Source: an uncultured Methanosarcinales archaeon
GTDB lineage: Archaea; Nanobdellota; Nanobdellia; Woesearchaeales; CAXGTL01
Assembly: GCA_964535955.1 (NCBI GenBank)
Contig: CAZHVK010000002.1
Span: 8,122 to 72,121 of the forward strand
DNA length: 64,000 nt
Direction: 5' to 3'
This document shows positions 29,481 through 30,196 of the stretch, piece after piece (position 1 is the first letter of the stretch; the number at the start of each line of letters is the position of its first letter). The notes beneath the pieces were generated by a model. That model was given only the letters and a program-made list of their open reading frames with translations, had not been told where the DNA came from and made no database searches. Made by a program: the position numbers and the translations under genes.

Positions 29481-29562
29481 AGTTTTCTTGGTTTTTTCTT
29501 TATTTTTTTATATTTGTATTAATAGCAATCAATCTTAATCATAAATAGAATTCTAAAAAAGA

Positions 29563-29758
29563 TGGGGATGCCGGGATTTGAACCCAGATTTCAACTCCTA
29601 ATATCATACAATACCAGGATCCGTTGGTCTCTTCATCAGAAGCGATAGACCAATAGTTAATCATCGCATTTCTGCTCATCGCTCCATTACTGGAGCCAAC
29701 TATTAAGGACAGATTGTGCTTAAACACAAATCTTCTAGCCAAGTTATACTACATCCCC
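29563..29758 (-). tRNA. tRNA-Trp(CCA) with three introns (D-arm ~29705-29734; 37/38 29629-29689; variable region 45/46 29590-29620)
   Basis: Acceptor GGGGATG/CATCCCC; anticodon arm GTTGG-CTCCAGA-CCAAC; T arm CTGGG-TTCAAAT-CCCGG; the 45/46 intron has a perfect CAAC/GTTG BHB; D-arm boundaries are less certain. Confidence 0.88.
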
Positions 29759-29863
29759 ATTGGCTTATATTAAGAATAATGTAGCCCTTTTTAAATATTA
29801 CTAAAATATTAGAGATCTAAATATCTTTATTTTTTAAGTAACCACTGATAGAACTAAAAAAAA

Positions 29864-30000
29864 TGGGCCTGCCGAGACTCTCATACACCAAAATTATTTT
29901 GATGATTTTGAACTCGGGACCGCCCGATCTCTGAATTGATTATTTATCAGTCGGGTGCTCTAATTGACCAGTATATACTTCCAGTCTAAGCCACAGGCCC
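29864..30000 (-). tRNA. tRNA-Ile(GAT) with three introns (19/20 29964-29980; 37/38 29929-29944; 59/60 29878-29906)
   Basis: Acceptor GGGCCTG/CAGGCCC; anticodon arm CCCGA-CTGATAA-TCGGG; each insert has BHB geometry (GACT/GGTC, CTGA/TCAG, TTCA/TGAG). Confidence 0.92.
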
Positions 30001-30196
30001 AATTGTTTTGTTGCGGGACTGAAGTGAGCGCAGCGAACGGAATGTCGCGCTATCCTGATCGAACTTGATAAAGTTCGCCATGACTCAGCCACAGGCCCAA
30101 TTGTTTTGTTGCGGGACTGAAGTGAGCGCAGCGAACGGAATGTCGCGCTATCCTGATCGAACTTGATAAAGTTCGCCATGACTCAGCCACAGGCCC
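30001..30196. repeat. Perfect 2 x 98-bp tandem repeat abutting the tRNA-Ile 5' end
   Basis: 30001-30098 = 30099-30196; each unit ends in AGCCACAGGCCC, identical to 29989-30000. Confidence 0.95.

Follow-up and report, generated by a model that had tools for sequence, protein, structure and literature searches.

A three-intron tRNA-Trp gene of a woesearchaeal archaeon and the putative circularly permuted box C/D guide in its anticodon-loop intron

The analysis concerns a 64,000-nucleotide (nt) stretch of contig CAZHVK010000002.1 from an uncultured archaeon of the order Woesearchaeales (the window) and, within it, a transfer RNA gene for tryptophan, pre-tRNA-Trp(CCA). An initial annotation had described this gene as split by three introns and had likened its 61-nt anticodon intron to a box C/D guide RNA; all the sequence words it listed are present on the minus strand at 29563-29758. 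We find that the gene is split by three introns, and we put the probability that the 61-nt intron at the canonical 37/38 site encodes a box C/D-type methylation guide at about 0.75. Such a module would most likely direct a methyl group to the tRNA's own anticodon, and its reading as a circularly permuted form of the known euryarchaeal intron guide is well supported by comparison. Multi-intron tRNA genes and intronic guides for Cm34 (2'-O-methylated C34) are already known; what appears notable here is a conserved putative intronic guide with circularly permuted parts and, apparently, a single kink-turn. Coordinates without a prefix are window positions; C2, C3, C7 and C13 denote contigs of the same genome, and L006, L018 and similar handles denote relatives.

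A tRNA-Trp gene split by three introns

The gene runs from GGGGAUG at its 5' end to CAUCCCCA at its 3' end (Table 1). ARAGORN detected no tRNA anywhere in the window, and Rfam searches in both gathering and E-value modes recovered neither the tRNA-Trp gene nor any C/D family there; with relaxed Rfam thresholds, the T arm and acceptor alone scored weakly as a tRNA. Once the three introns are removed in silico, the remaining 74-nt sequence is folded by ARAGORN as tRNA-Trp(cca). Intron boundaries were placed using intron-less relatives together with bulge-helix-bulge (BHB) geometry, the BHBs being read by hand. In many of the 100 relatives covered by a DNA search, the 5' exon (to about position 24) is fused directly to the anticodon arm, as in L018, which fixes the mature D arm as GUAU-AACUUGGCUA-GAAU.

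In BHB geometry, cleavage falls after the second nt of each 3-nt bulge, and the A-I pair rule applies. Intron 1 gives a central helix H of GGCU/GUCC with one C.U mismatch and a helix h' of AGAUU(U)GUG/CACAAUCU, H being fully paired in the same-genus relative L007. Intron 2 gives H as CUCC/GAAG, with a C34.A mismatch, and h' as GGAGCGAU/AUCGCUUC, while intron 3 gives a perfect H of CAAC (positions 40-43)/GUUG and h' as UCCU/AGGA. A BHB or a relaxed variant of it fits all three exon-intron pairs, and the boundaries agree with those of the intron-less relatives, as the initial annotation of a triple-intron gene would have it.

Several further features of the gene were seen among relatives. The D-stem mismatch A12.A23 (29746/29703) is kept in most of them and is replaced by G12-C23 in L025 and A12-U23 in L033. 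The tRNA-Trp of L006 (G003, same genus) carries, besides the three introns, a fourth that interrupts the D loop and is some 20 nt long (GUAUA/AAGGAAAGCUUUUCCGUAC/AACUUGG). A T-loop insertion of 20-115 nt (GGGUUCAAAU/.../GUCCCAG), probably at 59/60, is found in the tRNA-Trp genes of L007, L008, L010, L011, L014, L018 and L027, and many relatives without the 22/23 and 45/46 introns carry a T-loop insertion instead. Judged from the sequences compared, intron positions in tRNA-Trp turn over quickly while the 37/38 intron stays.

Table 1. Coordinates of the tRNA-Trp gene, its flanks and the elements of its 37/38 intron in the window (g34 and g39, elements antisense to the regions around tRNA positions 34 and 39)
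Feature	Position	Strand	Remarks
Pre-tRNA-Trp(CCA) gene, 196 nt	29563..29758	-	Four exons and three introns; spliced 74-nt product is tRNA-Trp(cca) by ARAGORN
TATA-like box TTTAAAAA	29788..29795	-	30-37 nt upstream of G1; putative promoter; upstream block also kept in same-genus L006
Exon 1	29735..29758	-	tRNA positions 1-22; identical or near-identical 5' exon in intron-less relatives
Intron 1, 30 nt	29705..29734	-	D-stem 22/23; missing from most relatives, e.g. L018, L010
Exon 2	29690..29704	-	Positions 23-37, including anticodon CCA
Intron 2, 61 nt	29629..29689	-	Canonical 37/38; holds the putative guide module; 70-80% identity to introns in other families of the order
g34 antisense UGGAGCG	29680..29686	-	Pairs A36 C35 C34 U33 C32 G31
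D-type box AUGA	29676..29679	-
Hairpin GCAGAAAUGC	29666..29675	-	Closed C-stem of the predicted kink-turn
C-type box G-AUGAUUA	29658..29665	-	3-nt bulge G-A-U, then G.A and A.G, U.U, U6-A1
g39 antisense UUGGUCU	29647..29653	-	Pairs last two intron nt and A38 C39 C40 A41 A42 (7-base-pair duplex)
UCGC at the D' place	29643..29646	-	Fifth-nt register for C39; not a D box
AUCGCUUCUGAU, 3' strand of helix h'	29635..29646	-	In the splicing-competent fold; sequesters g34, overlaps CUGAUGA; hand pairing and BHB-enforced fold
GAAG strand of central BHB helix	29631..29634	-	Pairs C32 U33 (C34.A) C35
Exon 3	29621..29628	-	Positions 38-45
Intron 3, 31 nt	29590..29620	-	Variable-loop 45/46; missing from e.g. 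L012, L013, L020
Exon 4	29563..29589	-	Positions 46-73
T6 run	29555..29560	-	Immediately 3' of the gene; putative terminator

The predicted guide module of the 37/38 intron

The 61-nt intron contains the module UGGAGCG-AUGA-hairpin-GAUGAUUA, which has the layout of a box C/D-type kink-turn preceded by a stretch antisense to the anticodon loop. In a kink-turn of this class, xUGA immediately precedes a helix; the opposite strand continues past that helix with a 3-nt bulge (G/A-A-U), then tandem G.A and A.G pairs, a U.U-type pair and a Watson-Crick pair. At the sequence level the intron offers AUGAUUA opposite AUGA, the tandem G.A pairs, the U.U pair and a Watson-Crick pair between D-box position 1 and C-box position 6 (D1:C6) that covaries among relatives. 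The D and C boxes are predicted to fold into a kink-turn of the C/D type.

This prediction was examined across 114 distinct introns gathered by pattern. Among them the D box reads AUGA in 91, CUGA in 14 and UUGA in 9, and RAUGA is invariant in the C box, the GA dinucleotides being fixed by the construction of the search. The hairpin, which the search pattern constrains at its first G alone, occurs in 89 different versions; in 114/114 it begins with either a G-C or a G.U pair, and its second pair also forms in every intron, as CG, GC, UA or AU, that is, through compensatory changes. The D1:C6 position behaves likewise, since A is found with U in 68/91 introns, C with G in 12/14 and U with A in 7/9. 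Watson-Crick pairs are thereby reached in 87/114 introns against a shuffle mean of 59, and 0/10000 shuffles reach 87, in a test that (like that for g39 below) ignores phylogenetic relatedness. Three pair types spread over many families are what a canonical C6-D1 pair predicts.

The position of g34 relative to the D box bears directly on a guide function. In box C/D ribonucleoproteins (RNPs), the methylated nt is the partner of the fifth nt upstream of the D box (the N+5 register). One nt separates the antisense word UGGAGC from AUGA, which puts the G facing C34 in fifth place ahead of the box, and the initial annotation, which had noted the complementarity of this word to the tRNA's own GCUCCA at N+5 spacing for C34, was correct in this respect. 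The register is identical in 114/114 of the pattern-collected introns, and among 21 Trp genes gathered by similarity and not by pattern, NUGA follows GGAGC(G/A) without a gap in 20.

Conservation of the module is deep. With the pattern CTCCA-N3-9-GGAGC-NN-TGA-G-N5-35-RRTGA, matches were found in 185/401 genomes of the order (138/258 genera), against 1/401 for the reversed pattern used as control. In a sample of the phylum, the rotated pattern was present in 138/401 genomes, including about 14 from other orders of the class. The same 20 of 21 similarity-collected genes share one architecture, in which the 5' splice site is followed by 3-7 nt, (U)GGAGC(G/A), NUGA, a hairpin, (G/A)AUGA plus 3 nt, and a variable 3' part. 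From the anticodon arm through the whole 37/38 intron, identity is 70-80% in many families, whereas introns 1 and 3 match only within the genus. A generic genome scan for NUGA-hairpin-RAUGA was too noisy to use as such (216 matches versus about 105 in shuffles); with a self-target filter added, the Trp and Met introns were the only credible matches left.

The 3' part of the intron contains the second antisense element, g39. The initial annotation had taken TTGGTCT as complementary to the intron/3'-exon junction around position 39, and this part stands, the word being complementary to AG/A38 C39 C40 A41 A42. No D-type box lies at N+5 for position 39 in this genome, and position 39 of this tRNA is a C, not a U. 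In 47-51 "long" introns, a GGUNN word 8-10 nt past the C box pairs with C40, C39, A38 and the last two intron nt, for 5-10 base pairs (bp) in total. The two variable positions of this word form Watson-Crick pairs with the last two intron nt in 98/102 cells (shuffle mean 59; 0/10000 shuffles reach 98), through eight pair types: CU:AG, AU:AU, CA:UG, GC:GC, UU:AA, AA:UU, GA:UC and GU:AC. This covariation argues that the g39 pairing is real and that it recognises the unspliced precursor. The partner of C39 lies 8 nt after the C box in this intron and 8-10 nt after it across the long introns, as in Archaeoglobus-type introns.

Candidate boxes in the 3' region fared less well. Tetramers at the D' place of the long introns include UUGA (17), UCGC (11), UCAG (4) and others. 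The UUGA that follows g39 was rejected as a D' box, as it is the 5' strand of a covarying 7-bp hairpin (UAGAGGC/GCUUCUA) that can lose the GA altogether (UUGGAGC/GCUCCAA). CUGAUGA (29633-29639), which the initial annotation had counted among the boxes, was ruled out as a conserved C or D box for the genus, since same-genus L006 has CUUAUGA; in the splicing-competent fold the word lies within a strand pairing with AAUGGAGCGAU, which accounts for it as part of helix h'. The UGAUGA at the C' place lacks a GA partner and is not conserved, and CUGAUGA is possibly a relic of C'. GAAGAN terminates most of the long introns here and also terminates Archaeoglobus-type introns.

The two antisense elements and the BHB compete for the same nucleotides. 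As g39 covers the 3' splice site and g34 the bulge at the 5' splice site, the guide fold cannot form together with the BHB fold. ViennaRNA energies for the anticodon arm with its intron are -24.0 kcal/mol in the guide-duplex fold and -18.9 kcal/mol in the BHB-enforced fold.

Related modules, protein genes and competing explanations

A parallel module is found in a second tRNA gene of the same genome. The tRNA(CAU) gene at C13:~29589-29764 (+) is called Met by ARAGORN once two insertions are removed, an 18-nt one near 26/27-30/31 and a 37/38 intron some 81 nt long. The latter reads CUCAUA/UGUU-UGAGCG-AUGA-UCCUUAGGGA-GAUGAUUA-..., and its putative guide UGAGCG again places C34 at N+5, while the base opposite position 35 has changed from G to U, fitting the anticodon. 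The Met-intron pattern is present in 35/61 relatives versus 1/61 for the control, with guides ranging from UUGAGCG to AUGAGUG. A CUGA was also seen in this intron, 13 nt past the C box. In Pyrococcus and Haloferax it is tRNA-Trp and tRNA-Met that receive C/D-guided Cm34 (PMC7994747, PMC7668247), and Cm34 has been detected in the tRNA-Trp of several archaea (PMC7668247).

On the contig of the Trp gene, the genome also encodes a free-standing C/D small RNA (sRNA) in canonical order at C2:158245-158330 (+), with a terminal stem GUGUGU/ACACAC, C box GUGAUGA, D' box CUGA, C' box AUGAUGA and D box AUGA; a hairpin (ACCUUCGGGU) lies between D' and C', and a 12-nt guide (CCGGAAGUAACU) is present. Its AUGA D box and D'-C' hairpin indicate that such variants are normal for this lineage. 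A strict regular expression for canonical C/D sRNAs matched only acidic-repeat coding sequence in this genome, having missed the C2 sRNA because its D box is AUGA and one spacer is 15 nt. The genes for L7Ae, Nop5 and fibrillarin, for which a search had been suggested, are all present: L7Ae scores 136 bits with TIGR03677 (above the cut-off), fibrillarin scores 261 bits with NF003276, and a Nop5 homologue of about 295 amino acids adjoins the fibrillarin gene (C3:76770-77387 (+); Pfam Nop 169 bits, NCBIfam 237 bits), aligning to positions 78-371 of 417 of NCBIfam aNOP56.

The wider tRNA complement fits a genome rich in disrupted tRNA genes. An EndA gene is located at C2:173259-173519 (TIGR00324, 116 bits) and an RtcB gene at C7:17570-18859. 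In the assembly (1.49 megabases, 29% G+C, rated 100% complete), ARAGORN with intron search finds 11 tRNAs, so that non-canonical or multiple introns must interrupt most tRNA genes of this genome; disrupted tRNA genes are on record for DPANN lineages (PMC5829648). Directly upstream of the Trp gene, at about 29853-30010 (-), lies a second intron-split tRNA gene, GGGCCUG...CAGGCCCA, whose anticodon loop CUGAUAA assigns it to Ile-GAU; its terminal T8 run lies some 95 nt ahead of the Trp gene.

Taken as a methylation guide, the module would work as follows. AUGA and AUGAUUA, joined by the hairpin, would form the kink-turn that serves as the L7Ae binding site, and L7Ae would recruit Nop5 and fibrillarin. 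UGGAGCG, the 6-7 nt that immediately precede the D box, would pair with the anticodon loop and set the wobble base C34 at the canonical fifth position, with Cm34 as the expected product. UUGGUCU, at the canonical distance past the C box, would pair across the 3' splice junction (positions 38-42) as the counterpart of the position-39 guide of euryarchaeal introns; its own D' box seems to have decayed in this genome, and g39 may do no more than clamp the substrate or hold the precursor in its methylation fold. Helix h' would bury g34 when the BHB fold forms. The mutual exclusion of the guide duplexes and the BHB fold implies that methylation would precede splicing. The binding of the proteins, the methylation itself, the choice between cis and trans action and any part played by the excised circle are what we infer from these arrangements.

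A number of observations weigh against a guide function. The g34 duplex has only 6 bp versus about 10 bp in Archaeoglobus-type introns, and both shuffle tests leave the relatedness of the introns out of account. No second (C'/D') kink-turn or K-loop can be drawn in standard geometry in this intron; a kink-turn built from the 3' GAAGA element with the 5' intron end, hairpin 2 or the exon was also tried, and none of these puts a GA beside a helix on the unbulged strand. Efficient activity of archaeal C/D RNPs reportedly depends on a pair of symmetric motifs (PMC1865073). The score of the Nop5 homologue does not reach the NCBIfam cut-off, and the protein has no counterpart to roughly the first 77 positions of the profile; the N-terminal domain that binds fibrillarin may be truncated, or the start may have been read wrongly. 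About half of the order's genomes do not carry the strict module pattern, and in at least one relative, L015, the tRNA-Trp intron is 21 nt long and lacks the module. This stretch is present in DNA metagenomes only, with nothing of it among the metatranscriptome contigs from those studies, and the Haloferax tRNA-Trp intron is dispensable for growth (PMC4090602).

Some of these points would sit well with a kink-turn that binds L7Ae purely as a structural or chaperone element, acting in folding, in the splicing order of the three introns or in the stability of the excised intron, with the antisense words serving a conformational switch and no methylation taking place. The single kink-turn, the lack of a D' box and the shortness of the g34 duplex all suit such a role, as does the fact that g34 and g39 both join folds alternative to the BHB helices; L7Ae, moreover, also binds kink-turns outside C/D RNAs. 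We nevertheless regard this explanation as unlikely, because it leaves unexplained why the N+5 register on the wobble base is invariant and is repeated in tRNA(CAU) with a retuned guide, why the module occurs in the very two tRNAs that receive C/D-guided Cm34 in other archaea (PMC7994747, PMC7668247), and why the words g34 plus D, C plus g39, and GAAGAG are common to the proven euryarchaeal guide type. Far less probable still is chance, that is, C/D-like words in an ordinary BHB intron whose complementarities are splicing helices. Helix h' of the BHB fold does explain CUGAUGA and part of the 3' region, and Rfam returned no C/D family, but the comparative data already contradict this view: the module is met in 185/401 genomes against 1/401 in the control, the hairpin and D1:C6 show compensatory changes, the g34 and g39 duplexes cover both splice sites in a manner incompatible with the BHB bulges, and the other two introns of the same gene are not conserved.

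A different alternative retains methylation and assigns the guide activity to the excised intron. Here the functional form would be the circularised intron acting in trans, in which the 3'-terminal UGAUGA/xGAAGA, 11-14 nt upstream of the D box, restores the order C'-g34-D-(stem)-C-g39-D', the linear precursor being substrate only. The intron of the window, rotated to its C box, is collinear with the Archaeoglobus intron and has UGAUGA at the C' place, and RtcB and EndA genes are present. In Haloferax, the excised intron works in trans and builds up in circular form (PMC3326292, PMC4090602), and the permuted C/D sRNA of Nanoarchaeum equitans is ordered correctly only as a circle (PMC3491384). 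We consider this possible but doubtful, since the candidate C' is not conserved (UUAUGA in same-genus L006), the D' place is occupied by UCGC, and the "UUGA" of another clade belongs to a covarying hairpin. Recognition of the unspliced precursor by g39 fits action in trans and requires no circle, and the metatranscriptome contigs lack this stretch.

The methylation guide remains our preferred reading, supported by deep conservation, kink-turn covariation, the fixed N+5 register on C34 and the parallel tRNA-Met(CAU) module. On the manner of its action we offer a tentative proposal for the tRNA-Trp and tRNA-Met introns of the Woesearchaeales type. As natural circularly permuted guides, they might act on the precursor in which they lie, as single-kink-turn "half-mer" RNPs that Nop5 possibly bridges into dimers of two precursors, or might become active only after EndA/RtcB excision and circularisation restore C'-guide-D.

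Comparison with known tRNA-Trp intron guides and related systems

Introns of tRNA-Trp that guide Cm34 and Um39 have been described (PMC4090602, PMC11408192). The nearest known relatives of the module are the box C/D guides in euryarchaeal pre-tRNA-Trp introns, of the type of Haloferax volcanii and Pyrococcus sR50. A scan of named genomes with the pattern CTCCA...TGATGA-N4-6-TGGAGNNCTGA gave 68 tRNA-Trp genes from Archaeoglobus, Geoglobus, Archaeoglobaceae, DHVE2/Aciduliprofundum, Thermoplasmata, Methanobacteriota and a few records labelled otherwise. All 68 share one order, in which the 5' splice site is followed by CGGUG-[C UGAUGA]-...GGGUCUG-[D' CUGA]-loop-[C' UGAUGA]-...UUGGAGCG-[D CUGA]-CCCGAAGAG and the 3' splice site. 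In 2004, Singh et al. reportedly assigned the guiding of C34 to the C/D motif and that of U39 to C'/D', which agrees with the Archaeoglobus-type sequences here. The intron of the window reads UGGAGCG-[AUGA]-hairpin-[AUGAUUA]-ACUAUUGGUCUA-[UCGC]-UUC-UGAUGA-AGAG, so that the euryarchaeal order C-g39-D'-C'-g34-D faces g34-D-hairpin-C-g39 in this lineage, in agreement with the permuted box order that the initial annotation had considered.

The two types agree in that the D box following g34 pairs with the C box preceding g39. These boxes are joined via the intron ends in the euryarchaeal type, whereas in this lineage a hairpin links them and leaves the other junction open, which amounts to a circular permutation. 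Begun at its C box, the window intron aligns by hand box for box with the Archaeoglobus intron, including UGAUGA at the C' place, and the distance from the C' place to the D box across the would-be circle junction is 14 nt here versus 12 in the Archaeoglobus intron. The permutation could have arisen through a circular intron intermediate, or by tandem duplication followed by loss. Common to both are the 37/38 site of tRNA-Trp, the targets 34 and 39, the words UGGAGCG plus NUGA, C box plus ...GGUCU(G/A) and 3'-terminal GAAGAG, the N+5 register for C34, the distance between the C39 partner and the C box, and guide duplexes that cover the splice sites and exclude the BHB fold. The window intron differs in its degenerate C'/D' motif (UCGC at the D' place) and in its AUGA D box and AUGAUUA C box with the compensating U6-A1 pair. 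Canonical order was not found in any tRNA-Trp of the phylum sample, where 6/401 genomes gave matches, none of them tRNA-Trp, versus 3/401 for the control.

If the guide function holds, the classical self-targeting tRNA-Trp intron guide would extend from Euryarchaeota to a very large DPANN order, and the conservation of the 37/38 intron amid the turnover of neighbouring introns would be explained. A unit with rotated parts and a single clear predicted kink-turn would question the rule that archaeal C/D RNPs need two symmetric motifs, and would provide a natural test case for half-mer or circle-dependent guide RNPs; activity that depends on circularisation, if true, would make this an obligately circular guide RNA. 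The module also offers a simple signature for annotating tRNA-Trp and tRNA-Met genes overlooked by tRNA finders in these genomes. In the literature searched, no published description of a rotated guide arrangement in a tRNA intron was found, the nearest cases being N. equitans sRNA24 (PMC3491384) and the box-less Sulfolobus tRNA-Trp intron (PMC3326292).

As for related systems, the non-canonical 22/23 and 45/46 introns are an ordinary case of the multi-intron tRNA genes known from Thermoproteales, ARMAN and other DPANN archaea, with up to three BHB or relaxed-BHB introns that standard finders miss (PMC4090602, PMC5829648), and show no essential difference from them. The sRNA24 of N. equitans and the C/D-like RNA in its tRNA-Met intron (PMC3491384) share with the present case a rotated box order and the placement of a C/D-like RNA in a tRNA-Met intron, as on C13; sRNA24 is free-standing, has all four boxes and was shown to be circular, whereas the module described here lies inside a tRNA-Trp intron and has one clear predicted kink-turn. 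The Sulfolobus solfataricus tRNA-Trp intron (PMC3326292) is a stable circle of 65 nt with no consensus boxes and 7-bp complementarities at 34 and 39. By its description it resembles the present case as a long tRNA-Trp intron of comparable size, found beyond the classical Euryarchaeota and bearing short stretches antisense to 34 and 39; unlike it, the woesearchaeal intron has a clear, covarying predicted kink-turn with D- and C-type boxes.

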